From: Mayamaea pseudoterrestris
Taxonomy: Eukaryota
Reading direction: 5' to 3'
Length of the DNA stretch: 64,000 nt
Assembly: GCA_027923505.1 (NCBI GenBank)
Contig: BROI01000014.1
Coordinates: forward strand, 124,001 to 188,000
Position numbers and translations under genes: made by a program. Under the pieces are notes generated by a model. That model worked only from the letters and a program-made list of their open reading frames with translations, searched no databases and had not been told where the DNA came from. Below, piece after piece: positions 9,736-56,928 of this stretch (its first letter is position 1; each line of letters begins with the position of its first letter).

Positions 9736-12700
9736 ATGAAACTTGCGAGTATCTTAGCCGTCTTGACTGGGATGTTCCGCGCCAAGGACGGCATGGCTGT
9801 CGACTCCGAGAGCACCATGGAGACGGAGATGTGGACTCGATTTGTCCAAGAAAATGGCTCCTTCGGTTCGATTCCCACTTCCGTTCCAATCACTACCGCA
9901 CCATCCGCCCTTGGGCCTGGAGCTGGCTCGCCGATTCCGACTGCAAAGGTAACGACGAGTCCATCTGCCGTCGCTGCTCCTGTACCAACGCAAGAACATC
10001 CTACCATGTTGCCGGCTCTCCCCACGGCTTTTCCACCTTTTCCGCCAACATTTTCAACGAAAGCCCCAACAACGGGCAGACAAGGTCCAACGACAAATCC
10101 GACTCGCATTTTGTCAAAGATTCCAACTCTTTTGCCCAGCGTTATCACCCAGCCTTCTCGCTCGCCTTCCCCTCATGTCCAAGTTTTGCCCAGTACGCAG
10201 CCATCTTCAAGTCCAGCTTTGGTACCTTCGGGTGTACAGTTGCCGACATTGCTGCCTTCACCGACGAGCCAACCAGCAAGAGCAAGTATCCCGCCAGTCC
10301 AACCAGAAATTCCTTCTGCCACAGTTGTGCCAACGACTCAATTGCCTGGATCGCCTGCTCCTGTTCCACCATCAGTTATTAGTCAAGCTCCAGCGCTTCC
10401 CAGTGTTCCACCAGTCCAAGTAGAAGTTCCCTTCGCCACAATGGTGCCAACGATTCAATTGCCTGGATCGCCCGCTCCTGTTCCGCCAGTTGTGCAGGCT
10501 CCATCGACAAGTCAGCCTTCTATCAGTAGTCAAGCTCCAGCCCTTCCCAGTGTCCAAGCACCCTTTACAATGCAGCCGTCTGCAGTAAGTCAAGCACCAG
10601 CAGTCCCTAGTCCGCAAATGCCAACGGCACAGCCATTTGCAATCAGTCGAGCACCGATTGGCCCGAGTGCTAAAGCTCCTACAACGCAGCCATCAGCTAT
10701 CAGTCGACAAATTCCATCAGCACAACCAACTGCAAGCAGACAAGCACCTATTGTCCCAAGTGTAAAAGCTCCAACCATACAGCCGTCAGCCATCAGTCGA
10801 GCACCGGTTCCAAGTGTGCAAGCTCCAACAGTTCCGAGTGCCCAAGCTCCAACGACACAGCCATCTAATGTCAGTCAAGCACCGGCAGTACCAACCATAC
10901 AGGCCCCGACCGTCCCCAGTATTCAGGCTCCAACGACGCTGCCACCTATCGTTAGTCCTGTTCTAGCGATGCCAAGTGTTCATTTTCCAACAGCAACGAC
11001 ACAGCCGTCTGCCATCACCTTTGCTCCAGTAATTCCTAGCGTGCAAGCTCCAGCCACACAGCCATCGGTCATCGGTCCAAAACCTGCGGCGCCAAGCGTT
11101 CAAACCCCGACAGCAACGGCCCGGCCATCGGAACTTACTCTTGCTCCGGCGGTTCCTATAGTCAGCGTTCCAACAATACAGCCGTCATCTGTGACTGCTC
11201 CGCCTGCCCAGGCTGAGGTTCCAACTTCTGTCACATCAGAACCAACGACGCAATTGCCTGGATCACTAGTTCCTGTTGCGCCAAGTGTAGGAGCTCCTAG
11301 TGCAGTTCAGCCATCTACAATCAGTCAGACGCCATTCGTTCCTGGTGTCAAAGGTCCTACGGCGCAACCCTCAGCGTTTAGTCAGGGTTCAACAATTCCA
11401 AGTGGCCAGACTCCAAGCGCGCCGCCGCCTACTAGTCAAGCCCCAGCAGTCCAAGCTCCAACTACTCAGCCTCTCCCCACGCAAGGTCCGCCCGTTACTA
11501 GTATTCAATTTCCGACGGTGGTACCATCGTCTGCGATCAGCCAGGCTCCAGTGATTCCTAGTGGGCAAGCTCCGACATTGTTAGCGCCGTCTGCTGTTAG
11601 CCACGCGCCAGCCACTCCAAGCGTTCAAGTTCCAACGACAACACCGTCTACTATTCAAGCTCCCGCGCTACCAAGTGTACAAGCTCCAACTGCAGTCCAG
11701 CCGTCAGTGACCAGTCAGCCACAGGGCATACCCAGTGCTCAGGCTCCAAATACACAGCCGCCCACGGTCATCCAACCTCCAGCACTTCCTAGTGTACAAG
11801 CTCCAACTGCAGTCCAGCCGTCAGTGACCAGTCAGCCACAGGGCATACCCAGTGCTCAGGCTCCAAATACACAGCCGCCCACGGTCATCCAAGCTCCAGC
11901 ACTTCCTAGTGTACAAGCTCCAACTGCAGTCCAGCCGTCAGTGACCAGTCAGCCACAGGGCATACCCAGTGCTCAGGCTCCAAATACACAGCCGCCCACG
12001 GTCATCCAAGCTCCAGCACTTCCTAGTGTACAAGCTCCAACTGCAGTCCAGCCGTCAGTGACCAGTCAGCCACAGGGCATACCCAGTGCTCAGGCTCCAA
12101 ATACACAGCCGCCCACGGTCATCCAACCTCCAGCACTTCCTAGTGTACAAGCTCCAACTGCAGTCCAGCCGTCAGTGACCAGTCAGCCACAGGGCATACC
12201 CAGTGCTCAGGCTCCAAATACACAGCCGCCCACGATCCTCCAAGCTCCAGCACTTCCTAGTGTACAAGTTCCGACAACACAGGCGCCTATCATCAGTCGA
12301 GGTCCGACTCTGCCGACCATTTTCACCAGATCTCCGGTGGCTCCAAGTGCCGGAGTACCAACGCTGATAAGTCAATTCCCGGTGGTGCCCAGTGTACAAA
12401 GACCGACAATACAACCATCGCTTGCACAAACTCTTCCGGTAGTTCCGACATCTGTAACTCGAACGCCAACAACGCAGCAGCCTGGATCGCCGAGTGCTAT
12501 TACTTTAGCACCAATTTTGAGTCATGCTCCAGTGCTTCCAAGCTTTAAAGCTCCGACAGCGCAACCGTCGGCCATAACTACGTCGCCAGCCGTTCCAAGT
12601 GTGCAGGCTCCAACTCAAGCACAGCCGTCAGTGGTGAGTCCAGCTCCAGTCACAACTATATTGCCTGCCATGCCACAGAGTCAAGCGCCTATCAGTTCGC

Positions 12701-13629
12701 CTCCTGTACAGCCTGGAGTTCCATCACCGTCCGCGCCGAGTCAACAAATTCCTTCATTGCCGACCCCAACGTTTCCAACAGCACAGAGTCGAAAGCCTAT
12801 CAGTGCCCCTCCAATTCAACCGGCTATTCCATCCCCGTCTACGCCGAGTCAACAAGTGCCGTCATTGATAATGCCACCGCCTTTGCCAACCACTCAGAGT
12901 CACATGCCTGTCAGTTTGCCGCATGCATTCCCATCTCCTCTCGCGCCAACGCAGCAGGTGCCGTCTTTGATATTACCACCGTCGTCGCCAACCACTCAGA
13001 GTCAAGAGCCAATCAGTGCGCCGCCTGCGCAACCTGCATCCCCATCTCCTCTCGCGCCCCCGCAGCAGGTGCCGTCTCTGCAGCCACCGCCGTCGTCACC
13101 GATTTTCCAAAGTCAAGCACCTGGTTCTTTGAATCCAGTGCCGTCTACATTCCCATCTCCATTTGCACCAAGTCAACAGATACCTACGATACCCTTACCG
13201 CCATCGCCGACTATGCAGACTCAAGCGCCAGCGCAGCAGCCACAGACTTCACCACCAGTGTTGTTGACACAATCACCTACTCTTCAGCCTCAAGCAATTG
13301 TCCCGACATCAGCCGCGAAAACAAGCGAGCCTACTATTATGATGCCGTCCAATGCTCCTGCCGTCTCTCAAGGTGGACCTTCCGGAAACATAGGAGGCGG
13401 GAAGGGTGTCACACCTGTCCCATCGGTCCCGGGCAGGTCGGAACCGACGTCGGCAAATGTACCGGCCAAGAGTTGTCCGCCAGTCGCATTCACCGCCGGT
13501 AGACCGAGTAGGGGTAGAATCATTAAGAGCAAGCGAGGAAGAGCCGGCAAGACGAGTGCCCCAAAAGCGAGTCATGGTGGAAATAACAAGTCTGGATCTC
13601 CATCGGCACAGACGCATCCGATCCATTAA
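9736..13629 (+). CDS. Secreted mucin-like Pro/Ser/Thr/Gln-rich protein (cell-wall or extracellular-matrix candidate), 1297 aa
   Basis: N-terminal hydrophobic signal, long P/S/T/Q/A/V low-complexity body, and a basic Gly/Lys/Ser-rich C-terminus. The ORF is uninterrupted. Confidence 0.8.
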   Translation: MKLASILAVLTGMFRAKDGMAVDSESTMETEMWTRFVQENGSFGSIPTSVPITTAPSALGPGAGSPIPTAKVTTSPSAVAAPVPTQEHPTMLPALPTAFPPFPPTFSTKAPTTGRQGPTTNPTRILSKIPTLLPSVITQPSRSPSPHVQVLPSTQPSSSPALVPSGVQLPTLLPSPTSQPARASIPPVQPEIPSATVVPTTQLPGSPAPVPPSVISQAPALPSVPPVQVEVPFATMVPTIQLPGSPAPVPPVVQAPSTSQPSISSQAPALPSVQAPFTMQPSAVSQAPAVPSPQMPTAQPFAISRAPIGPSAKAPTTQPSAISRQIPSAQPTASRQAPIVPSVKAPTIQPSAISRAPVPSVQAPTVPSAQAPTTQPSNVSQAPAVPTIQAPTVPSIQAPTTLPPIVSPVLAMPSVHFPTATTQPSAITFAPVIPSVQAPATQPSVIGPKPAAPSVQTPTATARPSELTLAPAVPIVSVPTIQPSSVTAPPAQAEVPTSVTSEPTTQLPGSLVPVAPSVGAPSAVQPSTISQTPFVPGVKGPTAQPSAFSQGSTIPSGQTPSAPPPTSQAPAVQAPTTQPLPTQGPPVTSIQFPTVVPSSAISQAPVIPSGQAPTLLAPSAVSHAPATPSVQVPTTTPSTIQAPALPSVQAPTAVQPSVTSQPQGIPSAQAPNTQPPTVIQPPALPSVQAPTAVQPSVTSQPQGIPSAQAPNTQPPTVIQAPALPSVQAPTAVQPSVTSQPQGIPSAQAPNTQPPTVIQAPALPSVQAPTAVQPSVTSQPQGIPSAQAPNTQPPTVIQPPALPSVQAPTAVQPSVTSQPQGIPSAQAPNTQPPTILQAPALPSVQVPTTQAPIISRGPTLPTIFTRSPVAPSAGVPTLISQFPVVPSVQRPTIQPSLAQTLPVVPTSVTRTPTTQQPGSPSAITLAPILSHAPVLPSFKAPTAQPSAITTSPAVPSVQAPTQAQPSVVSPAPVTTILPAMPQSQAPISSPPVQPGVPSPSAPSQQIPSLPTPTFPTAQSRKPISAPPIQPAIPSPSTPSQQVPSLIMPPPLPTTQSHMPVSLPHAFPSPLAPTQQVPSLILPPSSPTTQSQEPISAPPAQPASPSPLAPPQQVPSLQPPPSSPIFQSQAPGSLNPVPSTFPSPFAPSQQIPTIPLPPSPTMQTQAPAQQPQTSPPVLLTQSPTLQPQAIVPTSAAKTSEPTIMMPSNAPAVSQGGPSGNIGGGKGVTPVPSVPGRSEPTSANVPAKSCPPVAFTAGRPSRGRIIKSKRGRAGKTSAPKASHGGNNKSGSPSAQTHPIH
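11656..12270 (+). repeat. Coding tandem repeat, 117 bp (39 aa) x ~5
   Basis: QAPALPSVQAPTAVQPSVTSQPQGIPSAQAPNTQPPTVI repeated with near-identical DNA at period 117. Confidence 0.95.
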
Positions 13630-21099: not shown

Positions 21100-22939
21100 T
21101 CATCTCAGCAGCAGACCGCGCAGCTGTACAACACCATCTTCAATAGTGAGAGCGAGCTTTGCGAGAAAATTGTTTACTTGATCAAAGCACCATGTCCATT
21201 CGCCCCCGAAACGTGACAAAAACTCCCACGTAGCTGATTTGCGACAAGCTGCCGCAACGTATGCTCCTGCTTCCGACACCAATGAATTCGTCCTCGTCAA
21301 AATTGACGTGAGCGCCGAAGAAGACATGGAGGTGACACAAGCCACAAGCGATAGAAGCGAGTCGACAATAATAGTAGCTAAGCTTGACAAGGATGAGGCA
21401 ACGAACCGGCGGCTATATTCAAAGCTACCAAACACGCATTCGATCCCACGAGCCGGCAGCATCAATATTCCATTCCGACTTTGATCTAGCAGCCGACTCG
21501 CGCCCGCCCCTATATATTTAAAAAGCGACCAAATAGCTCGAACTGGAAATAAAAGTACATTCGAAACACGTCTTCCTGCGCCTCCGAACGCACGGTTCGG
21601 CCAAGTCAGCATTCTCCGAATTCCAAAAGCAGCATTATTTGCAAGGCTCTTGACAGCATTCTCAAACAAGTGCACTTCTTGCTCCGTGGACCTCGCGTAT
21701 CCGACAGCCATGATACTGGATACAAGCAACCCTATGCCAACTGTTGTAAACACAATCGTACTTGCCGGTCTTACGGCGTGTCCAAGACTGTTACGCAAGG
21801 CTTCACCAGCAGTGCGCTGTACAATATCATCTCCCAACACATCAGTGGCAAATTCCATGCTGCATTGGAAAACAAAACACAGCGTTAGTTATCTCTAATT
21901 GCTGCTACGCACGATGCATGCTGATATAAACTCACCTGTGATCAAGAACGTCCGAATCATTCAACGTTGCATGGGCCGACTGTTTCAGCAACTCAGTAAT
22001 GGTGGTAGGCACCGGCTCCTCTCGCGCCATTTTCTGCAGCATGGCAACTATGGAATCCTTGACCTGAGGATCGTCGACAATTTCAAGCACCAACTGTTGC
22101 ACTGCGCGTTTTATATTTTCGTCTTGAATCACCTTATTACAAACCTGAATGACTTGCGCCACCGTTTCCTTGTCATTGATCAAGTCGCGAAAGAGTTCCG
22201 CCAGTAGTTTATTGAGTGCGGTCTTGACTGGCTCGGACGACACCACCGTCACGACAAACTGCTGCGCCGCCTGCTGCAGCGTCCGCGACTGCATGACATC
22301 CTGCAGTATCGGTTCCAGTGCATTGTGGTATTTGAACGTTTTGCTTTCACCATCCTCCAGTATCACTTCCTCCTCCTTGCCCCATTCCGTCCTTGCCAGC
22401 TTGCTAAGGTCATCAATCACGTCGCTGCTGGCAAAAAAGTCGTCGTAGTCATCCTGCTCGAGAGTCTTGATTTGCTTCATAATGTACGGTGACGCCAGTA
22501 TCAAAATGGTCAGCACCGAAATTAACACAACGGCTACTTGATCACCTAAATTCAAATCCGTGACAACTCCCTTTAATCTTTGGAATTGCTGTTGGGCGAC
22601 GACGCTGGCGTTGGAGTGTGGAGTAGTGCTTGTTGTTGTCGCTGTCGTTGGTGCATTGCTGGTTGCTGCGTCGCCTGATTTTAGTGTAGCAGCATCTTTT
22701 TCGCTATCACCCTTCTCGCTGCCTTTTTGACTGCTGAAATACCGAAAATTCCGAACGCCATATTTAGAATGCAACGATTGTCGTATTTCGTTCGCGTGAT
22801 GTAAATTGATTGGTGCGGTTGATAAGAGCCTCATTGCCATGGAAACGGACGACGACGACGATGGTGCGATCCTGTTTCCGCCACACGTGGCAGTCGAAGA
22901 ACGCACCACTCGACAGGCGTTATGCCCTATTCTCAGCAT
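21100..22939 (-). CDS. Hypothetical membrane protein with mitochondrial-type presequence; 2 exons (22939-21936, 21859-21100)
   Basis: Arg/Ser-rich N-terminus and two hydrophobic segments. A GTGAGT...GCAG intron at 21935-21860 joins the two ORFs in frame (VLDHS-MEFATD). Confidence 0.8.
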
Positions 22940-23601
22940 GTTGAAGCTTTGGAATATCTATACTACGCAGCCAGTCGAACGCAAGATGCTAGAGTATATA
23001 GAGGGGTAAGGATTCTTTGTGGGGAGCGTGAGAAGGTGCGAGCCAAGCTCATGATCACGAATGTCGCACTGGTAAAATGAGGGATGCAGTCGTACCGGTT
23101 ATGAACTGCATCGAGCGCTTGGGAGTGCTTTTTCCTCGACTTGCGGCCGCAAACGCAAGGCATCCAACATCTCGAAGAAGATACTTTTGAGAGAAAAACG
23201 CTTGCAAGGTTACACTCACTTTACACGTAGGTCAGCAGTCTACCATTGCCGCGCGAGCGAGAGTATTGGAGACGATAATACGACTGTCGAGTAGCGCGCT
23301 GTCAATCAACGCAGCAAGTTTGCAAGGAGTTTAAAAAGAAGCAGCGCTGAAGGCGTAGTCAACATTCTGTGAAACACTGGGTGCTCGCTGGCTACGGTGA
23401 AAGGCTAGGACAGAGTTGTAGAGGCTGTTGAAAGACATTTTAGTTTCGTTAAGATACAAGCTGCGGCTACGGATGTTGGTGGCAACAGATTGTGAGAGCA
23501 GTCGATGGTTTGCCGAGCATGAGCGGTTCTGCTTGCAAAGCCGAAGGGTCCGGAAGCACATGGTCGGAGGCCCAAAGGGGCATTTCTTTTGGTCGTCCTT
23601 C

Positions 23602-23753
23602 TCCACTCCGTGGTTGTTCTTCAATCCAGGAGAACGGTTCTGCAGGCTGTTCTTCAAGTTGAGCATTGTTCTGCGGTCCACTCCGTGGTTGTTCTTCAAT
23701 CCAGGAGAACAGTTCTGCAGGCTGTTCTTCAAGTTGAGCATTGTTCTGCGGTC
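23602..23753. repeat. 75-bp tandem duplication (2 copies)
   Basis: TCCACTCCGTGGTTGTTCTTCAATCCAGGAGAAC(G/A)GTTCTGCAGG... at 23602 and 23677, with one mismatch. Confidence 0.95.
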
Positions 23754-24000
23754 AGTTCTTGAAGAAGTTCAGAGGGCTTTAGTAGCAGTGACGTCACAGT
23801 TCAGCTAGGCATTGTCATCCTAGCTCGGCATGCCCGTGGCTTCACATCCCTTTTGCTCCAGCTCAACTATAGTCTTTTATCATTGCGACGGCTACCATTC
23901 GAGGTCGCCATATTGGATAAGCATACAGGTGCTTACCAAGGAAAGTCGCCAAACCTTGCGCGCCATCGCGACTTAAACAAGCATTGCCAGCAAAAGACTT

Positions 24001-24526
24001 CACTTTTCAGAGTGACTGAGTGGATGCAACGTCAGCAGAAAACCTGTGTACGTTGCTGTGTGGGTACTGTCAATGTTTTGGTGCACTTTTCAGAGTGACT
24101 GAGTGGATGCAACGTCAGCAGAAAACCTGTGTACGTTGCTGTGTGGGTACTGTCAATGTTTTTGTGCACTTTTCAGAGTGACTATGTGGATGCAACGTCA
24201 GCAGAAAACCTGTGTGTACGTTGCTGTGTGGGTAATGTCAATGTTTTGGTGCACTTTTCAGAGTGACTGTGTGGATGCAACGTCAGCAGAAAACCTGTGT
24301 GTACGTTGCTGTGTGGGTAATGTCAATGTTTTGGTGCACTTTTCAGAGTGACTGTGCGGATGCAACGTCAGCAGAAAACCTGTGTGTACGTTGCTGTGTG
24401 GGTAATGTCAATGTTTTGGTGCACTTTTCAGAGTGACTGTGCGGATGCAACGTCAGCAGAAAACCTGTGTGTACGTTGCTGTGTGGGTAATGTCAATGTT
24501 TTGGTGCACTTTTCAGAGTGACTGAG
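24001..24526. repeat. Tandem array of 83/85-bp units (6 full + partial)
   Basis: Units start CACTTTTCAGAGTGACT at 24001, 24084, 24167, 24252, 24337, 24422 and 24507. Each full unit carries the inverted repeat GCAACGT...ACGTTGC. Confidence 0.97.
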
Positions 24527-24903
24527 CATGAAATCGTTTGTCCAGCTCCAATTGCCCATTGGCGCGAAGCAAATGCTTTTCATGAACGTAGGTAGGCTTT
24601 ACCTCATACCGGGTTACTATGAGTCATTCAGAGAATAATAACGAAGAGTAATGGTATCTAATCACGTGTCACTTAGGAAGGGTTAAGTAGATGCCACGTG
24701 AGGGTCTGAGGGTCCGCACCGCGATGTATCGTGGTGAACTTCACCCCGCGACCCTCGAAATGCTCGCCTGGCTCGGGAGTGCATTGGCTCGCTCAGCAAT
24801 AGGCTCCCAATGCGCCACGAAACAGCATGTACTCCTCACATTTCGCCGATGAAAGAATGTGTCGATGGCGGCTCCTTGACTTTCAATTGCCATTAACAAA
24901 ACA

Positions 24904-26925
24904 ATGGCTTCAATCGGCGGATGGTGCGTTCTGCACCCTGATCTGCAGAGCAAGCTTGACAATGAGCTTGTTCTTTCTGCGGCACATAATGGATTCACTC
25001 TGTCGCCTCCTCCATTTCGCTTCCGCTGTAATGTATGGCACTACACCAACGGACCAGTCTTGGCCGAGAAGACTCAGATCACTTCTTACCTCTCTTACTA
25101 TTCGATGCTTTGGCGGTTTCTCGCAATGATTGGAGACTGGGAATCAATGCTTGTTCTCCTTCTGCCTAGGCCTATTGGTCTTGGCAAGGTTCCTTCCATG
25201 AAGGTTGAGTCGCTGGTGCTGTTTCTGCGTTGGAAGAAACTCGACACGAACACATTTTTGCGTGACGACGATGAGATGCTTCTCCGTGACGCTAACTTCA
25301 ACGAACCAATTCGTTGCAATGGTGGATGGAAGAGTAACCATAGCATGAAGGCCTTCGCCTCAGCCATTGTATGGCTCCATATGTCCATTGGATACGAGGC
25401 GCAGGATTCTTTCAAGGAAAAGTGTGTTGATTGTTTGAATCTTTTCCGCGTCGACCAAAATAGCCATGGATGTAACGAACACTTTGGCAACCGTCAGATC
25501 AAACGTATTGGACAGCCGACACATTGTTTCAAATTTGCCAACGGAAAAAAACAGTTGCTCGACAAGGACTACGAGGTACACGGATCCTGTGCCATTGCAC
25601 CATGGCAGCTTCGCAAACTTGGCGCGTTGCTTGTCTACGAAGGACTTGTTGGTTTGAGCGTTTGGGTTGCCGTTCTGATTGCAATCAACTTGTATTTGAG
25701 AGCAGACGACGAGTTGCTGACGATATCAATGGAGAGTTTTGAGGCGTCGTCCTTCCACGTCGAAGCAAACGGACGAATCAACGGTGTCTGCCTCAAGATA
25801 CGCGGAAAGACCGACTCGCGTGGACAGTACTTTCATCTTTGGGCGGACCATGAGTATCCGGACATCTGCCCAGTCCGCCATCTGCTGCTGTTGGTGCATT
25901 TGCTTGGCGTTAAGAAAGGTTGGTTGTTTCAGTCGCTCCGGTCGCTCGGGGCAAACACGAGGCGCGACGACGGAGACTACAGAGGCACTAAACGACTCGA
26001 CTACGGAACAATATTCAAGTATTTAAAAGAGCGCTTTATTGAATTATTCGGTCCTGAGACAGGCAAGGGATTCGGTATGCACTCGTTCCGCAAAGGTGCT
26101 TACTTGAAAGCGGCGTTTCAAAAGGCGGACTTGCGAATTTGCCAATACGACGCTCGCCACATGCGCCATGAAGAAGCCGTCTTGTATTTGGGGAACGCCA
26201 ATACACTTGTTTCATCCAATGAAATCAATCCAAGCCCAGGAAACGAGCTTGCCAAGGCATACAGAGGCGTTCGCAATGGTGGCGCGCAACCAAGTCCCCA
26301 AGAGCATGCCGGTAAATCACTCGCCCAGCTCGCCGACGAGTTTGTGTTGCAACTAAAAGTGCCGCATGGCGTGGCGCGCAACGTTCGCTCATTGGTAATT
26401 GAGGCGCAGCAGTTTCAGTGGTCGACTGTCGAAGGAGATTGCCTCGAGCAATGGCTAATGACTGTTCCAGTGGAGCTTCGTAATCCTTGCAAAACCATTT
26501 GCTTGCGATACAAAAGGCAGGTCGAATCAATTTATAAGCAGCAGCAGTTGATTGAGGCAGAGAAGGTTGCAGCAGTTACGCCACCGTCGTCGTCGTCGTC
26601 GTCAAGCAAACGCGCAAAGAATGCGACGCCGCCAACAAATTTCTTTGCGGGGCGAGAGACGATTGCTCAGTTGAAGTCACTTCCTCAGAAACTTGACGCC
26701 TTGCTCGAGCTGCATGATAGAGTCGAGGCGATTGGTGGCGTCGAAAGAATTGTTCTTGATGCGAAGGAAAAGAAATATTTTGCTCGAACGTTGGCGCCCG
26801 TCGCGCGTTGTTTCAAAAACCATTGCGGCGAGGATAGAGAGGCGTTCGTCGGTAGATGGGAAAGGACATTTGCAATCAAGTTTAGTGAGTCATGCTGCAA
26901 AGGCGTTGGTGAATGTGGCCGTTGA
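24904..26925 (+). CDS. Tyrosine recombinase / integrase-family protein, 673 aa
   Basis: Catalytic residues in canonical order and spacing: R266 (NLYLRADD), K302 (IRGKTD), H393-x-x-R396 (GMHSFRKG), H419 (DARH), Y428. A CPV motif and WLF follow the Lys strand. Intronless. Confidence 0.85.
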   Translation: MASIGGWCVLHPDLQSKLDNELVLSAAHNGFTLSPPPFRFRCNVWHYTNGPVLAEKTQITSYLSYYSMLWRFLAMIGDWESMLVLLLPRPIGLGKVPSMKVESLVLFLRWKKLDTNTFLRDDDEMLLRDANFNEPIRCNGGWKSNHSMKAFASAIVWLHMSIGYEAQDSFKEKCVDCLNLFRVDQNSHGCNEHFGNRQIKRIGQPTHCFKFANGKKQLLDKDYEVHGSCAIAPWQLRKLGALLVYEGLVGLSVWVAVLIAINLYLRADDELLTISMESFEASSFHVEANGRINGVCLKIRGKTDSRGQYFHLWADHEYPDICPVRHLLLLVHLLGVKKGWLFQSLRSLGANTRRDDGDYRGTKRLDYGTIFKYLKERFIELFGPETGKGFGMHSFRKGAYLKAAFQKADLRICQYDARHMRHEEAVLYLGNANTLVSSNEINPSPGNELAKAYRGVRNGGAQPSPQEHAGKSLAQLADEFVLQLKVPHGVARNVRSLVIEAQQFQWSTVEGDCLEQWLMTVPVELRNPCKTICLRYKRQVESIYKQQQLIEAEKVAAVTPPSSSSSSSKRAKNATPPTNFFAGRETIAQLKSLPQKLDALLELHDRVEAIGGVERIVLDAKEKKYFARTLAPVARCFKNHCGEDREAFVGRWERTFAIKFSESCCKGVGECGR

Positions 26926-27229
26926 TAATGCTAGTAGTTGCCTTTATTTGTTACTTGTCGTCCATGGTTGATCTCGCAAGCGTCCGTCGAGAAACCAGAG
27001 TTGAAGTTGCGGCAGGCGAGTTTCTGTAGAAAAGTAGATCCGTGGTAGAGTTTCTACGGAGGAGCCATCACCGGTCGTCGGAGAAACTCTGGCGAAACAT
27101 CGGCGTTGAGGCCATTGGCCGGCGCGCATGGACCAACTAAGTCCAAAACGTGTTCAGTACCGGGTCGAGGGTCTGCACCATAGTAATGCAGTTACTAAGC
27201 GCTGCGAGACGAAGGCTGTGCAGCCTCAC

Positions 27230-28087
27230 ACAGTGCAGTGCAACCATGAAGCTCCCAAGTTCATTTCCAGTGACGGGCCCTCTGCGGCCACTGGGGTGGA
27301 ATACGGAGGTGATTGTAAGGGCTGCAGTGTCAAGGGGAGTCAAGGCAGTGGTCAGTGGTCCTAGCAAGGCAAGAGCACAAAAGGTGTCAAGGTTCCTGGC
27401 GACAGTGCAGTGCAACCATGAAGCTCCCAAGTTCATTTCCAGTGATGGGCCCTCTGCGGCCACTGGGGTGGAATACGGAGGTGATTGTAAGGGCTGCAGT
27501 GTCAAGGGGAGTCAAGGCAGTGGTCAGTGGTCCTAGCAAGGCAAGAGCACAAAAGTTGGCAAGGTTCCTGGCGACAGTGCAGTGCAGCCATGAAGCTCCC
27601 AAGTTCATTTCCAGTGATGGGCCCTCCGCGGCCACTGGGGTGGAATATGGAGGTGATTGTAAGGGCTGCAGTGTCAAGGGGAGTCAAGGCAGTGGTCAGT
27701 GGTCCTAGCAAGGCAAGAGCACAAAAGGTGCCAAGGTTCCTGGTGACAGTGCAGTGCAACCATGAAGCTCCCAAGTTCATTTCCAGTGACGGGCCCTCTG
27801 CGGCCACTGGGGTGGAATACGGAGGTGATTGTAAGGGCTGCAGTGTCAAGGGGAGTCAAGGCAGTGGTCAGTGGTCCTAGCAAGGCAAGAGCACAAAAGT
27901 TGGCAAGGTTCCTGGCGACAGTGCAGTGCAACCATGAAGCTCCCAAGTTCATTTCCAGTGACGGGCCCTCTGCGGCCACTGGGGTGGAATACGGAGGTGA
28001 TTGTAAGGGCTGCAGTGTCAAGGGGAGTCAAGGCAGTGGTCAGTGGTTCTAGCAAGGCAAGAGCACAAAAGTTGGCAAGGTTTCTGG
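27230..28087. repeat. Tandem array of 172-bp units (5 copies)
   Basis: Units start ACAGTGCAGTGCA at 27230, 27402, 27574, 27746 and 27918, with only a few substitutions between units. Confidence 0.97.
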
Positions 28088-28088
28088 T

Positions 28089-31000
28089 TGTAACTTGTAA
28101 ATCAAATCGTTGCACCTTTCGCTTGTAGCTGTCCTTGGATGGCCAATCCAAGCTTGCAGTTGCTACAATACGAGAGACGAATAAATCGCTTTCTTAACTC
28201 TTCAAGCTTAGTAAGTCTGCTTGTTTCTACTCTATATCGCACTAGTTTCAGCAATATACTTGTTGAATCGCTTCGAAGCCGTCGCTGCCACGCATCACGC
28301 GATCGTGAGGCTGTGGTGAGCCGCGAGTGCCGCTGTGTCACCCTATCGGACATTCGGTGTGACTTGCCCGATTTTCGCTGTTTTCGTTCGCATCCTGCAA
28401 CTCCCCTCAAGTCATACCTAATAGTTAGATTCCTTGAAGAGCAGGTTCTTTAAGTGCTTGCTTGCCGTAGCCCGTGGAAGAAACTTGGTAAGTACATCCG
28501 CCGGGTTTGTCGTTCCCATGATGTGGTTGAAATTAATAATTCCCGCCGCAATCGCTTCGCGTACACGGTGAAATGCCAGTGCATTGTGTCGCTTCGTCAG
28601 ACTAGAGTGCGGTAGGTTGCTGCTTTGCGTTACCGACTTGTTGTCTCCAAACATCCATGAAGGTCCGTCGAGCGGAACTCCCAACATGCGTAGCGTGAAG
28701 CGAAGATCCATGATCTGCTCCGTGCTCACTCTCGCTGCTGCAAACTCCGGGCAACGTCGCCGTCTCGACCGTCGCTTGGCGTTTCGAAAGCCAATCAACG
28801 ACTGTTCCATTCAACATGTGTAGCATGCCCATCGCTGCCCGTCCCGTCGTGTAATCGTGGTACAGGTTCGCATCTTCGAACGTTGACATTCGCCTGCGCC
28901 TTGCCGCGCGGCGTGGGCATGTTCACGGAAGCTCCTTCGCAGATCTTGCCGACACTGTAATCCCAATCCATCTTGTCAACTGTCGCGTATCGCTCGTCCG
29001 TTGGAATCGAAACGTTGAATCGAATCGCTCCATCCGGGTATCGTCGTAAGTATCCGCAAATATGCTTCAACCGTTCCAAGTGCCCCGCTCGTGGCGCAGC
29101 TCGGAATCTCCCCATAGTCATGACAGCGCAGTGAATGTCGAATCGACATAAACTTACTGCCCATTGCAACGCACCAATTATCGATTGATACTTCGCAATT
29201 CCATCGACGTCAAGTTCTTTCGTTTCGTCGAGTTCCGGATGATCGCCGTCGCGTAGTGGACTTGTCTGCGGTCGCGGTTCCTCGCCGAACATTTCTTTGT
29301 AGTTCGCTAGTAGTCGTGTGACGTACTTCTTCGCTCCGAAGCATATTATGCTATCGCCGTCACCCCAAACGTCTGCGACCAAATGATATGCTACTTGACC
29401 GACGCTCTTCAACTTGTAGTTGTAGTTCTCAATTAAAAGATCCGTTAATTCCTTCGGATTCTTCATCGCTATCGCTAAATCATCGACATACACACAAACG
29501 TATTCGTAGTGCGTGCCTTTATCGCGCATCCACACGTCCGGTTCTGCGATACACGGCGTGAAGCCAATGTCGCGGAGCGTGTCGGCAAAGTGTTCGTGCC
29601 AGCGTGCGCCTGACGTGCGAAGACCGTATAATGCCTTCACAATCGTGAGCGTGTGACCCTCGAGCTCCCCGAACTCCGGACCTGCCACAATAAAAACCTT
29701 CTCTTTCGTTTTCGCTTCCAAGTATGCGTTGCCGACGTCAGCTGCCCACAGTTCCAGACCGTTGAGTTCCGCTAACATCGCTACCATTCGTAGACTTCGC
29801 AATGACACAACGCCCGAGTAAACTGGAATCCTTCGGCGGCTCTCATATGTCCTCCTGCAACGAGTCGTGCTTTCCGTCGCAAATCGTCTTGACATCGAAT
29901 ATCATGTGCACGTTTATTCGTTTCCCACGGCGCCGGCATAACGCTTTACCGACTCCTTGATCTGCGAACGTGTCGTAATCATTTATCTGATTTAATTCCG
30001 TTCGAATCGCATCCGTCCACAGCGTGTTGCCGTTGATCTCGTCGAGAGCTTTCGCATCTTTATAATTGCGCGGCAACCTTACGCCGAATATGTAGCGTGC
30101 GCCTGTTTGCTTTCGATTTTCGTTTCGCCGCTGTTACCATCTGTCGAAACTTCTTTCGCTTCCGAGTGTAATGCTCCAGCTGCTTCCATCCTGGCTTGTC
30201 GAGTAAGCCGTGCTTGAGTCCATACTCTGCGATCGTTATCGGATCATCCTTCTTCATGATCGCGAGAGGCTCCACGTCGTCGTTCCGTCAGTCCATTCGA
30301 CGAGAACGTTACTTGAACTTCCTTTGTATGTCGGATCGTTCGGTTTCAAATTAAGCTCGTGTCCGATTACCTTCGTGAATACCCACTGAGTCGCCGGATC
30401 GTTTCGTATATCTTCGTCCATCTGTCGTTCGATTAAATCCGACAGTTCGTTGGTACTTTCGCTGGCTCCTCTCCCATTTGGATTAGGAAACCTTTCGTCG
30501 TTTCGAGTAGCTCGTTATCGCGTACTTCGATATATTCGCATACAGTCGCTCGCATTTTCTGACCGTTTTCGTGTTCCCTACGGACCAGTGTCCGATGAGT
30601 TCGCGCTTGGAGAGAACAGAGGGCATTTATTCCTGATTCTTGCTCAGCCCTTCTGAAGAACTTCGCTGGTACGTTGGCGTGGTTCGCCATCGGAATTGTT
30701 TCGTCGTCGTTTCCTTCGTAGTTGTCGTGACTACTCTGTCACATGCGTGCTATGGTAGCGTCCTGTCGCGAGATCTGAGTTTCAAAATTTCCGCTCGCTT
30801 GCGCGTGTAGCTTCTTCAGAAATCTCCTCCAGACTCAGGGAAGGGAGGCAACTCTCGTGGTAACAAGTAGCTGCGCGAGACCACGTTGAGCGCGGAATCG
30901 CCTGAAGCGTGTCGTCCGTCAGAACGAGAAAAGTCATGTGCGGACCGCTATTCTCTGCGATGCCCACGAATCGGCCGTTGCCCCAGATCGTACCGCCGAG

Positions 31001-31430
31001 GGAAAGCTCCCTGCGCCTCAAACGTGACCGGTTCCCACCGCACTTGAAATGTAACAAAGGCGAAAGATATCCGGCAGATTTCACCGAACGCAACTTCCGT
31101 TGGCGTGCGCCATCCCAGCGATTTCGTCGCGAGGACGTTCAGTATCATGATTACGAATTTAATCAGCAAAACCCAGCAATGGCCTGCAGGAACCCGAATC
31201 TCGTTGGAGGTTCTCCATCATTGGGCTTAATTTGCGACGTGTGACGTTCGCATGGATTTTGTTCTGGATGACCCGGTTCTGTGGTCACTTGAGGAATATT
31301 GGCCAACCGACAGAGGATCCCTCACAGCCTTAGCCAGTCTCCGACTTGGCTTTGTCGCTCGAGCAGTCCGTTAGGAGCGCCCACTTCGCGGATAAAATCC
31401 TCTAACGCGTTGACATTTCGCTCTCCGACT
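28089..31430 (-). mobile_element. Ty1/Copia LTR retrotransposon (diatom CoDi-like), frameshifted and 5'-truncated within integrase
   Basis: Minus-strand fragments in Copia order: integrase C-part (GWRTPTEVAFG; GRFVGIAENSG), EPLAIMKKDDP...LLDKPGW, PRNYKDAKALD, RT (ADVGNAYLEA; KALYGLRTSGARW; YVDD), RNase H (GDNKSV; KRHNALAFHRVREAIAAG; NPADVLTK). A polypurine tract GAGGGGAG at 28408-28401 is followed by a candidate LTR ~28399-28089. Confidence 0.92.
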
Positions 31431-32308
31431 TCCATCTCATCACCTTCCTTGCCCTTCCTTGCCAGCTTGCTGTCATCAATCACTCCTGCTGGCGAAAAAT
31501 CTCTGTCTCCTGCTCATTTTTTGATAATGTACGGCGACGCAAGTATTAGAATGGTTAGCACCGAAATCAGTACAACGGCCACTTGATCACCTAAATTTAA
31601 ATCCGTGACGACTCCCTTTAGTCTTTGAAATTGCTGTTGGGCAACGACGCTGGCGTTGGAGTGTGGGGTAGTACTTGTTGCTGTTGTCGTTGTTGCAGGT
31701 GCATTGCTTGTTGCTGCGTCGCCTGATTTTGGGAGAGCAGCATCTTTTTCGCTATCACCCTTCTCGCTGCCTTTTTGACTGCTGAAATACCCAACCATGT
31801 ACTGATGCAACGATTGTCGTCTTTCCCTGATCGTTTCTGGTGCGCTGGATAAAACCTCATTGCCATGGAAACGACGAACTCAATCTTCCTGCTCGAAACG
31901 CACCACTACGCGCTCTTTCTCCTGTACTTTTGAATAACTATACTAGGGACCCTCGAACCAGCGTAAAGGGATTCTTTGCGACGAAACGCGAGGCCAAGCC
32001 CATGGTGGTCGATGTCGCACTGGTGGTAAACGGACACAATCGTACCGGTTTTGGACGACTGCTCCGAACGCTTGGGAGTGCTTTTACTCGCATCGCGGCC
32101 GCAAACGCGAGGCACCAACATCTTGAAGAAGATACTACTTTTGGGAGAAGAATTCTTGCAAGTTTACACTCACTTTACACGTAGGTCGGCAGTCAACCGT
32201 TTTCGCGCGAGCGAGAGTATCAAAGACATTGGCGATCGGCTGTCAACAACGCAGCAAGTTTGCGAAGACTCCAAAGAGACGGAGCGTGACGCGCGTGATC
32301 TACATTCT
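31431..32308 (-). pseudogene. Diverged partial copy of the 5' part and promoter of the 21100-22939 gene
   Basis: Aligns by eye to ~22351-23368. Encodes YFSSQKGSEKGDSEKDAA...DLNLGDQVAVVLISVLTILILASPYI, with many small deletions on both sides. Confidence 0.85.
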
Positions 32309-42486: not shown

Positions 42487-44394
42487 TTAAGAAAGCTCGT
42501 CCTCGAGTCGATCGCAAATATAAACGGGGACTCTCGGACGAATGTACCGCACGCGGCTGTACAATCGGCAGTTCCTTTTACAGTAACGCGTAAACGCACT
42601 TCGAGCGCTTGCCTGACGGGCAGAGTCGCCGCAAGACCTTCTCAGAGCCCTTTCGACGCACAGATCTTGTCCTCTAAGGAACAAGCCACAGCTGCACCGA
42701 TCCTTGATCTCTCGAAGACATGACCGACCGCGAGCGGAAGGCTGTTGCGGCTTCCTGGTTCGCATGCCCACCGGGCGAGCGGGAGCGGGCGTAGTGAGTT
42801 GAGGAGATGGTGTACTGACAGGCTTATTAGTAGGAATTGTAACTGGGGTTGTTGGTTGAGCGAGCGACGGTGATGCGGAGGGGACAAGAGAGATTGTCGG
42901 GCCTGCGCTTGGAGCTATTGCCGGAGCTTCAGTTCGAGCAGATACAGGGAAGGCGGATGGCGCAATAGATGGTAACTGAGCAGGTGAGCTTGTAGGAGCC
43001 CGGGTTGGAACACGCGTGGGAGCACGAGGCCTGCCTGTTCGGCTGGATATAGGAAAGGCTGTTGGCGCTGAAGTTGGTGGAATCGTTAAGCAGCGCGGAC
43101 ACGTCGGCGCAGGTGAGGGAGCGACAGGCCGCGTCGTTGGAAAAATTGGCCGTGGCGTTCTTGCTGCAATCGGAAAGCTTGACGGTTTATTTGATGGAAG
43201 CTTGCTTGGGCGGATAGATGGTCGGGGCGGGATATTGGAAGGCCGATTCGACGGTAGTCTTGAAGGAGAAGCAGATTTAAGAGTCGGCCTAGGCGTTCTT
43301 GCTGCAATCGGGAATCTTGAAGGTTGATACGACGGACGCTTGCTTGGGCGAACAGATGGCCGGGGCGGGACATTGGAAGGCCGGCCCGACGGTAGTCTTG
43401 AAGGAGAGAAAGATTTTAGAGTCGGCCTAGGCGTTCTTGCTGCAATCGGGAACCTTGAAGGTTGATACGACGGACGTCTGCTTGGGTGAACAGATGGCTG
43501 TGGCGGGACATTGGAAGGCCGACCCGACGGCGGTCGTGAAGGAGAAGCTGATTTGACTGTAGGCCGTGGTGTCCTTGCAGCCACCGGGAAACTAGAAGGC
43601 TTACCCGAAGGTAGTCGTGACGGAGGAGCTGATTTGACAGTCGGCCTAGGCGTCCTTGCTGCAACAGGAAAACTCGAAGGCTGGCGAGACGGCGATCGTG
43701 AAGGAGAAGCCGTTCTCAGAGTTGGTTTCGGCGTCCTTGCTGCAACCGGAATATGCGAAGGTTGACCCGACGGCGATCGTGAAGGGTAAGCCGTCACAAG
43801 AGTTGGTCTTGGTGTCCTCGCCGCGACAGGAGAGGGTGATGGTGGAATTGACGGACGAGTGCTTGGATGTACCGTCGGAGCTGCTGTGGGCGATGGCGTT
43901 GGCGCTACCGGAGAAGTCGATGGAGCACTGGAGGGACGAGCACTTGATGCAGCTGTTGGCACACTCGTTGGTTGCTGCGTAGGAGAATATGACGGAGTCC
44001 AGGAAGGGCGGACGCTTGGCTCGACGGTTAAACGAGTTGTCGGTCGTGGTGATGGCATGTAGGACGGTCCAATGCTTGGTTTCACAGTAGGAAGAGGAGC
44101 GGGCGCAATCGTAGGTCTTGGTGTTCGAGCCGCCACGGGAGAAGCTGATGGCGCGTAGGATAAAGCACTCGTCGGCCCAACTGTGGGAGCCTGCACCGGA
44201 GCAGCAAAAGTACTAGGCCTTGGTGTCCGTGATGCTACCGGAAAACTCGACGCTGGTTCGGTCGGACTGCTCGAAGGATGAGGAGTGCAGTCGATCATGG
44301 TTGAATTTGGTGAGCCAGCGGGAGAGTTCGTTTGGCCAGACGCCAATGACACCCACACTGCAAGCAGAAGCCATCGCAAAGAGTGGTGATGCAT
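42487..44394 (-). CDS. Secreted Pro/Ser/Arg-rich repeat protein with a Cys-rich C-terminal domain, 635 aa
   Basis: Signal peptide; ~12 P(V/I)AARTPRPT-type motifs in 27-aa and 46-aa repeats; C-terminal CL...CSCG...C...C...YC..NC domain. Confidence 0.85.
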   Translation of the reverse strand: MHHHSLRWLLLAVWVSLASGQTNSPAGSPNSTMIDCTPHPSSSPTEPASSFPVASRTPRPSTFAAPVQAPTVGPTSALSYAPSASPVAARTPRPTIAPAPLPTVKPSIGPSYMPSPRPTTRLTVEPSVRPSWTPSYSPTQQPTSVPTAASSARPSSAPSTSPVAPTPSPTAAPTVHPSTRPSIPPSPSPVAARTPRPTLVTAYPSRSPSGQPSHIPVAARTPKPTLRTASPSRSPSRQPSSFPVAARTPRPTVKSAPPSRLPSGKPSSFPVAARTPRPTVKSASPSRPPSGRPSNVPPQPSVHPSRRPSYQPSRFPIAARTPRPTLKSFSPSRLPSGRPSNVPPRPSVRPSKRPSYQPSRFPIAARTPRPTLKSASPSRLPSNRPSNIPPRPSIRPSKLPSNKPSSFPIAARTPRPIFPTTRPVAPSPAPTCPRCLTIPPTSAPTAFPISSRTGRPRAPTRVPTRAPTSSPAQLPSIAPSAFPVSARTEAPAIAPSAGPTISLVPSASPSLAQPTTPVTIPTNKPVSTPSPQLTTPAPARPVGMRTRKPQQPSARGRSCLREIKDRCSCGLFLRGQDLCVERALRRSCGDSARQASARSAFTRYCKRNCRLYSRVRYIRPRVPVYICDRLEDELS

Positions 44395-45679: not shown

Positions 45680-46224
45680 CAGAGTGTCACCTAGTGCAGG
45701 ACCCAGTCTCCATCATAGTGCAGCACCAATATTTCCTCTTCTGCGGCTTCCAGGTTGTCTTCCAACACCCGCGCCCCAGCAGCTTGTTAACAAATGTGCC
45801 ATTCAGTGACCCAAGCACCAAGCCCAGTGATCCCTGCACCGTACCAAGCAGCTTGCCATCAAGTGTGCCATCAAGTGGTCTATGCGCCAAGCCCAGTGTC
45901 TCACCTAGCGCAGGACCCAGTCTCCTTCCCAGTGCAGCTCCAAGCTTGTCACCATCTGTGGCTCCCAGTTGCTCTCCCAGCAGCCATCCCAGCAGCTTGC
46001 CATCAAGTGTGCCATCATGTGGTCCAAGCGGCAAGCCCAGTGACTCACCTAGAGCAGGACCCAGTCTCCTTCCCAGTGCAGCATCAAGCTTGTCACCCTC
46101 TGTAGCTCCTAGCTGGTCTCCCAGCACCCAACCCAGCAGCTTGCCATCAAGTGTGTTGTCATGTGATGCAAGCGGCAAGCCCAGTGACTCACCTAGTGCA
46201 GGAGCAAGCAGCAAGCATTTGTAA
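45680..46224 (+). pseudogene. Orphan fragment of a Pro/Ser-repeat (PSxxPS) gene with 144-bp units
   Basis: PSSLPSSVPS...KPSDSPSAGPSLLPSAAPSLSPSVAPS repeated at a 48-aa period. No ATG start or signal peptide, and few CpGs. Confidence 0.5.
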
Positions 46225-54717: not shown

Positions 54718-54990
54718 GATACTAGTAGATTGTGGCTGTTTTGAAAAAGGTGGGTATGTACAAGGGGAGCGCAGGACGAGTTGATTCACAGAGTCAGCAG
54801 TCAACTCGATCGCCGACATCATCATCTGCCGCGCCGCGCTGTGATGCGCCGCGCCGCTTTTATATGTCGTACCGGTACAAGTTCAAATTCTAAAATGACC
54901 ATGATGTCACGCCGTCACTGCCGGTCACAGTGTTTCGGCCGCCGACATGCAGCATCGCCAGTGCTGACGACAATATACATAACCTGCCCA

Positions 54991-56928
54991 ATGGCGCTAT
55001 CTTCCTTGGCGTCGTCGCAATCGGCTCGAGCGCAATGGCTTCCAACTGTTCAGCGCTTGAAGGACCGAATGCCAAGGCCTACTCCAATGCATTACACGTC
55101 AGCCATGGTATTGCTTGTCATTATTTTATTCAATGCACCGTTTCACCACAATAAAGCAAGTCAATTGCGATACACGGAACACTGTCTCGACCTGGAGCTT
55201 GCCGTCGAAGCGACGGCCGCTTCCATGCGTCACGCGTCATCGCAACATTATCCAAAGGGATTCTGCCAGCGACTGCCACTGCATCAGTCGGCGCCCTGGA
55301 TATGGAACCACCAAGCGCAGCAAATATTGGACGCAACGTTTGATCCTCTCCGTGATGGATCATCCAAATGGCTCGCCGACGCCTTTGACGCGCTGCCACC
55401 AATGTCCTTGACGACGCGAGGACGGCCGCAACATGACGTTTGGGGAGCCTTTATCAACAAGATTGAATTGAGAATGAGTGAAGACGACCTATTACAACAA
55501 GCAAACCCTATCAAAGTGCTTGTCATTGGCAGTCATTATGATGCTTCCGTCTCGTGCGCAATGAAAGGAGCGTCGTCGCCATTCAACGTGGACTGTTCAT
55601 GGCCGGCGCGCCTGCAAACGCTCATCGATTTTTATTTTGGCATAGGAATCATTCAAATCGACGTTCAGTCGTTGGAGCACGACACCACCAGTCTGCTCAC
55701 GCATGCAATACAAACCAATCAACTTGGGGCGCACAATGCGGACCTGATTATTTACGGCATGTCGTCGCAGGAGCTGCATCGCGATGCAATGCTTTCCGAC
55801 GTGAATTTGGAACACGCCATCAACATGGACGCACGCGTCAAGTACTACCAGCGGCTGCTGCTCCGCGTCCAAAATTTCATCCGGGCTTGTTTAGATAGTC
55901 AGCCGTGCGAGGAATATGTTCCGCCGGTGCTGCTCGTGGATGACTACGTTGGAGGATTGCACGACAAGATTTTGATCGAGTATAGCATGACGCGCGCCTT
56001 GCAGCAAGTGGCGGACCACTACCGGATTGGTTACGTGAGCTATCCTCATTTGGTGCGGAAAATAGTCATGACTGATGCAACTAATGATAATCCGTGGGCA
56101 CCAGATTGGTCCAAAAACAAGAAGAACATTCAGCACGGTCGAGGGGCACACGTGGGTTTTCTGTGGTCGCTGCTTTACAACTTTCTGGAGTACACAATAG
56201 ACTACTGCAGTCACGAAAGTGACATTCAGGAGTATCGCCAGGTGCAAAAGAATACGAAACTAGTAGAAAACTGGGTCATTGATCGCATACAGCAACCTCC
56301 GCCTTATTTGAATGGAGACTTGCTTTGGACGAATGTCAGTCCACAATGGAAAGAGTCTGTCGATGCGCTGGAACTACGGAAACGTAACGTATGCGCTGGC
56401 CGGCAACGACAATCAAGGGCGAGGCAGTGCTCCTTTGCCATGTGGGGACGAGGATCCGATGGCTCCGTCATGACGGCGGCGGCTACTCAAGCTATGCTGA
56501 AGCCATACATGAAGCGCATGTCAGGATTCACAATATTGGACGGTGGTATCATACGCGCTAGCCAACCGCATGCTACACTTGAATTAGTGGTTCATGACGA
56601 AGACCGTGATGTTGACCAGGCATCTCTGTTCCTTGGGCCCGGAGAAATGAAAGTTCTGCAGGATCCAATGAACCAACTGGATAATGCAGAGTTAAAACTG
56701 ACCATAACCAGCGGTACGGCGAATGCTACTACAAGTACTACAGTAAACGTTGTCGATCGAATGTCCTGGCAGCAAGACATCCCCGAGAATGAACCAGGTC
56801 AAGCGATTCACCTGCTGATCGAGCTTGTCGCTGGAGCGACGGTTGACATTGTGGCTTTATTTCTGTGCACGAGCGAAGATGTATCTTTATACGGCAACGG
56901 CGCGTGGGTTGACCGGAATAATAGATAA
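54991..56928 (+). CDS. Hypothetical type-II membrane protein, SGNH-like fold possible (start uncertain)
   Basis: Long ORF with N-terminal TM; IKVLVIGS...SWPARLQTLID...ADLIIYGMS...HGRGAH resembles degenerate SGNH blocks. Confidence 0.65.
   Translation: MALSSLASSQSARAQWLPTVQRLKDRMPRPTPMHYTSAMVLLVIILFNAPFHHNKASQLRYTEHCLDLELAVEATAASMRHASSQHYPKGFCQRLPLHQSAPWIWNHQAQQILDATFDPLRDGSSKWLADAFDALPPMSLTTRGRPQHDVWGAFINKIELRMSEDDLLQQANPIKVLVIGSHYDASVSCAMKGASSPFNVDCSWPARLQTLIDFYFGIGIIQIDVQSLEHDTTSLLTHAIQTNQLGAHNADLIIYGMSSQELHRDAMLSDVNLEHAINMDARVKYYQRLLLRVQNFIRACLDSQPCEEYVPPVLLVDDYVGGLHDKILIEYSMTRALQQVADHYRIGYVSYPHLVRKIVMTDATNDNPWAPDWSKNKKNIQHGRGAHVGFLWSLLYNFLEYTIDYCSHESDIQEYRQVQKNTKLVENWVIDRIQQPPPYLNGDLLWTNVSPQWKESVDALELRKRNVCAGRQRQSRARQCSFAMWGRGSDGSVMTAAATQAMLKPYMKRMSGFTILDGGIIRASQPHATLELVVHDEDRDVDQASLFLGPGEMKVLQDPMNQLDNAELKLTITSGTANATTSTTVNVVDRMSWQQDIPENEPGQAIHLLIELVAGATVDIVALFLCTSEDVSLYGNGAWVDRNNR

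Follow-up and report, generated by a model that had tools for sequence, protein, structure and literature searches.

The 64,000-nucleotide stretch of contig BROI01000014.1 analysed here (the window) comes from the freshwater pennate diatom Mayamaea pseudoterrestris and contains an intact gene for a tyrosine recombinase (YR), which lies between two homogeneous non-coding tandem arrays and which we read as probably the recombinase of a Crypton-type DNA transposon. An initial annotation of this DNA, made from its letters alone, had singled out the same gene and arrays as a candidate undescribed YR element. The gene, the motifs of its product (673 amino acids, aa) and the repeats around it are as follows, with repeats called by Tandem Repeats Finder (TRF), positions counted from the first letter of the window, and ORF standing for open reading frame.

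24904..26925, plus strand: candidate Crypton-type tyrosine recombinase gene, an intronless, uninterrupted 673-aa ORF with an ATG start
25378..25482, plus strand: motif H159-x14-C174-x2-C177-x12-C190-x2-H193 of the N-terminal domain, a putative zinc-binding module
25699..26187, plus strand: predicted catalytic core from R266 to Y428, with R266, K302, H393xxR396, H419 and Y428
26809..26916, plus strand: Cys/His cluster C636, H640, C664/C665 and C671, in a C-terminal region conserved family-wide
23602..23753, no strand: 75-bp direct repeat, 2.0 copies, 98% matches, in the left part of the insert described below
24001..24524, no strand: 83/85-bp array ending 379 bp before the ATG, with 6.2 copies (97% matches, score 964)
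27230..28087, no strand: 172-bp array beginning 304 bp after the stop codon, with 5.0 copies (97% matches, score 1632)

The ATG is preceded by an in-frame stop codon 27 nt upstream, and the frame is open throughout, as the initial annotation had it. The product contains the catalytic set R...K...HxxR...H/W...Y of the tyrosine recombinase superfamily in the right order and with canonical spacing, R396 and H419 being 23 residues apart and H419 and Y428 nine, as in the Cre alignment. Among all stored relatives of at least 550 aa (n = 96; the other 57 of the 153 were shorter and were excluded), R266 is kept in 96, K302 in 94, H393 in 89, R396 in 91, H419 in 93 and Y428 in 92. In a smaller alignment (A1) of the window protein with 27 hand-picked full-length matches, 28 sequences altogether, R266, K302, R418, H419 and Y428 are invariant and R396 is nearly so. 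The residues of phage P1 Cre that carry out catalysis are R173, H289, R292, W315 and Y324, and alignment of the family profile with Cre (hhalign) placed R266, H393, R396, H419 and Y428 on precisely these positions; K302 was not aligned to the Cre lysine. The catalytic set and its numbering had been called correctly from the start, and the ORF is a catalytically complete tyrosine recombinase, as far as catalysis can be predicted from residues.

Two further Cys/His motifs distinguish the protein. Residues H159, C174, C177, C190 and H193 of the N-terminal motif are kept in 93, 96, 96, 96 and 94 of the 96 relatives, respectively, and in the C-terminal cluster C636 is found in 88, a His or Cys at position 640 in 86, and C665 in 85. 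This pattern of Cys and His residues suggests that the motifs may bind zinc. Neither motif was named by any of the libraries searched, and a search of the language-model Atlas with residues 470–673 returned nothing. Family proteins have about 690 aa and three parts, namely an N-terminal domain with the H-C-C-C-H motif, the YR core and a conserved, Cys/His-rich C-terminal region.

The family is large. A HMMER scan of 1.84 billion representative proteins, with family clusters counted at 50% identity, recovered 780 representative clusters at E ≤ 1e-3, of which 401 were at E ≤ 1e-10 and 85 at E ≤ 1e-30, and most relatives, at ~690 aa, can be aligned with the window protein from end to end. A word-based protein search returned only three proteins, whether the single sequence or the profile served as the query, and none among shorter proteins. 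Pattern scans of nucleotide collections yielded no relatives among 234 and 55 matches in metagenome contigs, 129, 2 and 64 matches (three scans) in viral contigs, and 12 and 38 matches in contigs of prokaryote genomes. The 90% identity cluster of one 736-aa member (P0019) also lists peptides of 40–44 aa named from Megasphaera cerevisiae, which look like a clustering artefact rather than a bacterial relative. Within the six-frame translation of the window, the family hidden Markov model matched the YR ORF alone (E = 3e-201; the next best match had an E-value of 0.23), so that no further fragments of the family were found in the 64 kb; a 694-aa ORF at 54844–56928, considered as a possible member, proved unrelated.

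Profile matches connect the family to known recombinases through its clear relatives. Relative P0050, which aligns end to end with residues 61–672 of the window protein (E = 1e-46), matches NDC10_II at 28.0 bits, above the Pfam cut-off of 26.3, and the integrase family phrog_1 of PHROGs at 1.1e-9; a phmmer search of PDB sequences with P0050 gave nothing significant. NDC10_II was matched by 3 of the 28 members of alignment A1 (E ≤ 0.1) and by 3 of 55 further members (E ≤ 0.001), Phage_integrase by one of the 28, across the HxxR..Y part, and each of two integrase PHROGs by three of the 28, with no other PHROG family recurring. The nearest clusters in the Atlas carry NDC10_II, GCR1_C, Phage_integrase, DUF3435 or DUF3504; two of the listed Atlas clusters are mostly diatom, and the top one is partly viral. 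Hence the profile search that the initial annotation had proposed gave a divided result: the window protein itself matches no library, but its relatives match NDC10_II and integrase profiles. Since the window protein has no library match of its own, the assignment to the YR fold rests on motifs and relatives; by this transitive homology, predicted from sequence, the protein is a member of the tyrosine recombinase superfamily.

Further searches spoke against other classes of YR elements. A Starship captain was rejected, as DUF3435 matched none of the 28 members (E ≤ 0.1) and none of the 55 (E ≤ 0.001), and appeared only with an Atlas look-alike of rank 23. CryptonA was likewise rejected, with DUF3504 matching 0 of 28 and 0 of 55 members and being represented only by the Atlas look-alike of rank 24. 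A retrotransposon of the DIRS/Ngaro type was rejected in the absence of a reverse transcriptase (RT) on the strand of the gene or in its flanks and of any terminal repeat structure. Indeed, the flanks of the YR gene encode no RT, transposase or second protein, and 15 flank ORFs have no Pfam match. Neither terminal inverted repeats nor long direct repeats were detected between the two flanks. The earlier statements that the gene has no RT or gag of its own and no obvious terminal inverted repeats therefore hold, the only RT nearby being that of a Copia element (RVT_2) on the opposite strand.

The gene is present in few, very similar copies. The cluster of the window protein at 90% identity consists of three M. 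pseudoterrestris proteins of 673, 672 and 670 aa, all intact, 96–99% identical and encoded on three contigs (917,834, 733,383 and 724,790 bp). The two other copies depart from the window protein at 6 and 25 positions, all outside the catalytic set, and the 99%-identical one is annotated as 'hypothetical protein MPSEU_000765500 [Mayamaea pseudoterrestris]'. The three copies group as a single clade (support 1.0) in the tree built from the 96 relatives, with tips of 0.007–0.029 on a stem of 0.48; the sisters of this clade are two environmental proteins, ~46% identical, and the nearest relative outside Mayamaea is 46–47% identical. Short tips on a long stem fit recent copying inside the genome, and the three near-identical intact copies fit the young, possibly active element that had been envisaged when a search for further copies was suggested. 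Of 19 other clusters inspected, 18 have their full-length members on contigs of 1.9–4.3 kb and one on a contig of 19.2 kb; the short contigs may represent transcripts, repeats that were collapsed, or sequences whose assembly stopped at flanking repeats. The genome report, as far as its text was available, describes a diploid genome with 2.97% heterozygosity, assembled into 30.6 Mb and 41 contigs after purging of haplotigs, ~3 Mb above the k-mer estimate, with 19% repeats, mainly Copia (PMC9724779).

Both tandem arrays lie where the initial annotation had placed them, six copies about 380 bp upstream of the gene and five about 300 bp downstream, as does the 75-bp repeat further left, and the match percentages given above bear out its description of the arrays as nearly homogeneous. 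The first two copies of the 85-bp array are 83 bp long; compared with a reference copy (blastn), the 85-bp units are 92.9–100% identical and the 172-bp units 97.1–100%, and blastn found no further occurrence of either unit in the window. At a TRF score of at least 80 the window has 14 rows, corresponding to ~11 distinct arrays. Three of these combine >95% matches with at least five copies, namely the two flanking the YR gene and a 117-bp array within the 1297-aa ORF at 9736–13629; this last array is coding, and its period is a multiple of 3. Neither 85 nor 172 is a multiple of 3, and ORFs across the 75-, 85- and 172-bp repeats have no Pfam match. It is unusual for this window that a single gene has two homogeneous, non-coding arrays less than 400 bp away, an observation from a single locus to which no statistic attaches.

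The initial annotation had proposed that the arrays act as binding or recombination sites of the recombinase or as the template of a non-coding RNA, and neither idea fared well. The left flank (23369–24903) and the right flank (26926–28417) have no 10-mer in common in either orientation, and their best local alignment scores 26, against a median of 22 and a 95th percentile of 28 in shuffled sequences. A scan for lox/FRT-like sites (11-nt arms, spacer of 5–9 nt, at most two mismatches) gave two overlapping matches, both inside the ORF, against 3.5 expected, and none in the arrays. The only inverted repeat in the 85-bp unit has arms of 7 nt separated by 19 nt, and the 172-bp unit has no inverted repeat of 7 nt or more. 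Rfam and tRNA gene scans were empty, and the predicted RNA folds of the 85-bp unit (z = −0.27 and +0.12) and the 172-bp unit (z = +0.91 and +1.79) are no better than those of shuffled sequences. The 75-bp unit gives a marginal z of −2.24 on the plus strand, where 9 of 200 shuffled sequences fold equally well. From the arrays and flanks, 10 ORFs were compared with the protein collection in order to find these arrays beside the other copies, and none had an exact match. We do not read the arrays as recombination sites; most likely they are minisatellites that expanded in the untranslated flanks of the gene, either in the element or at the locus.

Two observations on the repeats stand apart. A near-identical 19-bp direct repeat (24702–24720 and 27162–27179; one gap and one mismatch) surrounds the ORF and would bound a 2.5-kb unit that excludes both arrays; its score falls within the shuffle range, which makes it no more than a hint as to where termini might lie. 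A centromere satellite was considered for the 172-bp unit and rejected, given only five copies, a GC content of ~0.53 and no further evidence.

A feature beyond those initially annotated is that the YR gene lies inside a composite insert of 8.1 kb bracketed by a diverged host duplication, the components of which are listed below (LTR, long terminal repeat).

22387..23368, no strand: left member of the host duplication, spanning the 5′ part of gene 21932–22939 (minus strand) together with its upstream region
23369..31452, no strand: composite insert of 8,084 bp between the two members of the host duplication, comprising the YR gene, a truncated Copia and the three repeats
~28089..28399, minus strand: putative 3′ LTR of the Copia, with a polypurine tract before it, from reading of the sequence
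28418..31452, minus strand: Copia pol, 5′-truncated and frame-broken, with RNase H, RT and part of the integrase
31453..32308, no strand: right member of the host duplication, in which the 5′ part of gene 21932–22939 is present as a truncated pseudo-copy

The left junction of the insert (23368/23369) is sharp in the alignment. The two copies of the duplication have the same orientation and are 73% identical over 993 columns with 148 gaps (blastn), and a 121-aa frame in the right copy is 77% identical over 120 aa to the product of the left gene (E = 3e-45). This ~0.9-kb duplication could have originated by tandem duplication, break repair or recombinase-driven rearrangement. As its two members have diverged far more than the YR copies have from one another, the YR gene probably arrived after the duplication. 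The RVT_2 match of the Copia remnant extends over 28795–29895 (E = 3e-20), and its pol is split over about 10 stop-to-stop frames. From its translations the remnant reads like a Copia cut off inside the integrase; five upstream fragments have no Pfam match, so that the integrase part is unconfirmed by Pfam, and there is no second LTR in the window to confirm the limits of the first. The putative LTR ends within ~10 bp of the last 172-bp repeat, and the Copia may have landed in or beside this array. Because the array abuts the Copia remnant, the right end of any YR element is undefined at this locus.

The remainder of the window is gene-dense, with genes for a myosin, signal recognition particle (SRP) receptor beta, an Fpg glycosylase, a TFIID subunit and an acyl-CoA dehydrogenase. 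The G+C content at third codon positions (GC3) of the YR ORF is 0.547, and that of nine other ORFs in the window is 0.41–0.56. Homogeneous repeats inside coding sequence occur elsewhere in the window, with units of 117 bp (5.3 copies, 97%; 11656–12272), 138 and 81 bp (43148–43854) and 144 bp (45831–46203), all with periods divisible by 3; the ORFs that hold the first two (9736–13629, and 42487–44394 on the minus strand) have no Pfam match.

Taken together, these results suggest, with a probability of about 0.6, that the YR gene encodes the recombinase of a diatom DNA transposon of the Crypton type, low in copy number, YR-only and most like CryptonS. Cryptons are DNA transposons that encode a YR and nothing else, have no terminal inverted repeats, end in a direct repeat of a few bp and are low in copy number (PMC3212892; PMC8969392). 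The restriction of the coding capacity to a YR, combined with the absence of terminal inverted and long terminal repeats, is as described for Cryptons (PMC8969392), and the diatom gene fits the Crypton kind in every feature that could be tested. Seven oomycetes and the diatom Phaeodactylum provided the elements on which CryptonS was based, a group without GCR1_C, with a conserved C-terminal region and with mostly TATGG termini (Kojima & Jurka 2011, PMC3212892). Repeat tables list 13 Crypton copies, 16.6 kb in sum, for Phaeodactylum (PMC5859163) and also include Cryptons for Cyclotella (PMC7466962). YR-only Cryptons are thus already known from diatoms and, given this as well as the links to NDC10_II and integrases, the proposal of an undescribed kind of element is doubtful.

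As far as CryptonS is described in the available text of PMC3212892, the window gene shares with it a stramenopile host, a single YR protein without RT, low copy number, the lack of GCR1_C, a conserved C-terminal region and the lack of terminal inverted or long terminal repeats. It differs in that short terminal direct repeats of the TATGG type were not identified here, the comparison being one of descriptions rather than of sequences, and in its flanking tandem arrays, which that text does not mention for CryptonS. The likeness to CryptonF and to Ndc10 (Cbf2) lies in the NDC10_II matches of family members, which cover the first half of the catalytic domain, and in the NDC10_II annotation of the Atlas clusters nearest to the diatom protein. 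However, GCR1_C, the C-terminal DNA-binding domain of CryptonF, was detected in none of the 28 members (E ≤ 0.1) and in none of the 55, and, unlike Ndc10, the diatom protein keeps all catalytic residues. With Cre and phage integrases it has in common the catalytic residues, their order and their spacing, five of the six residues aligning with Cre, as well as the matches of family members to integrase PHROGs, whereas it is about twice as long, carries the added N-terminal Cys/His motif and an extra C-terminal domain, belongs to a eukaryotic host and has no recognisable lox-like site near its gene.

If the gene belongs to such an element, its mechanism would be that of the Crypton model of Goodwin 2003, which is summarised in PMC3212892 and for which an active CryptonF provides an example (PMC9977147). 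The element would be cut out by its recombinase as a circle, and the circle would re-integrate by site-specific recombination between a few-bp sequence at one element end and a matching target, often near genes. The active CryptonF of Chlamydomonas inserts near genes and drives rearrangements, and it is only in Chlamydomonas that Crypton activity has been seen directly, according to the available text (PMC9977147). The copy in the window occupies the intergenic space between two divergently oriented host genes, within an older composite insert to which the truncated Copia also belongs.

Several results weigh against the assignment to a mobile Crypton. The window protein has no Pfam match at E ≤ 1 apart from a fragment of DUF7016 and no match in PHROGs or NCBIfam at E ≤ 0.01, and PDB sequences gave nothing usable with either the protein or the profile of alignment A1. 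The match of the family profile to Cre is weak (hhalign E = 0.018, probability 2.6%), and with lambda Int the H..Y box alone aligns, at a non-significant E-value of 0.13 (hhalign). TATGG or CCATA occurs once or twice per flank, the frequency expected by chance. Substitutions between the Mayamaea copies are slightly but not significantly enriched in the less conserved columns of the alignment (p = 0.21). Leftover alleles could account for the 99%-identical pair, because the genome is heterozygous at 2.97% and the assembly is oversized. Finally, a copy in a rearranged locus may be an immobile remnant.

Among other explanations, the gene could belong to a domesticated family of host recombinases, of which a few copies are kept for a cellular job while the arrays are incidental minisatellites. 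Consistent with this possibility, the catalytic residues persist throughout a highly diverse family and all three Mayamaea copies are intact, the GC3 value lies inside the range of the nine other ORFs, the 1.9–4.3-kb contigs of 18 of the 19 relative clusters could be transcripts and hence reflect expressed genes, and domestication of Cryptons is well known (PMC3212892). We nevertheless regard it as unlikely, considering that the domesticated Crypton genes described have mostly lost their catalytic residues (PMC3212892), that 780 clusters below 50% identity together with near-identical copies in one small genome resemble transposon lineages, that the nearest relative outside Mayamaea is so distant, and that the window copy lies inside an insert beside a Copia remnant. 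Less likely again is that the 8.1-kb block was moved by break repair or duplication, with the YR gene as a passenger copy without working ends. The bracketing by the gapped ~0.9-kb host duplication would fit such an event, as would the right junction, which interrupts pol of the Copia and the coding region of the host gene, in neither case at a transposon end, and active Cryptons are reported to cause rearrangements (PMC9977147). But the duplication is more diverged than the YR copies, normal integration into an already rearranged site is possible, and the YR ORF is intact.

The remaining alternatives concern the arrays. That they are subterminal working parts of a new YR element, extending from about 23369 to at least 28087 and serving for recombinase loading, as crossover sites or arising as products of recombination, appears improbable. 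It is true that the only two non-coding arrays in the 64 kb with >95% matches and at least five copies adjoin the ORF and that both lie within the insert whose left edge is at 23369. The array-free core (24525–27229, 2.7 kb) is also similar in size to the contigs of the relatives, as would fit short-read assemblies that break at repeats. Such arrays would be new, the part of the Crypton literature that was searched containing no report of tandem arrays as element parts. These points are opposed by the lack of a common 10-mer, by flank alignment and lox-like matches at the level expected by chance, by the lack of notable dyad symmetry in the units, and by the right end of the element, which is undefined where the 172-bp array ends at the Copia remnant. 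Moreover, known YR sites are single, short and common to both ends (PMC3212892). The least probable of the readings takes the ~690-aa recombinases with the H-C-C-C-H motif as a separate, uncatalogued superfamily of protist YRs, distinct from Cryptons A, F, I and S, with unrelated arrays on either side of the gene as working parts, which could then be landing pads that load the recombinase at multiple sites, or products of unequal exchange by the recombinase.

A Crypton-type transposon thus remains our preferred reading of the locus, and it bears on what is the least understood order of eukaryotic DNA transposons, one with low copy numbers and no structural hallmarks. The 780 clusters of the family consist mostly of unnamed environmental sequences and, because Pfam misses most members, the family is likely under-annotated in protist genomes; its conserved Cys/His modules offer handles for both profile building and biochemistry. 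If the arrays were to travel with the gene, they would represent a new structural feature of YR elements, at present a possibility only. With three intact copies, the small and well-assembled genome of this diatom would be a practical place in which to test the mobility of Cryptons.

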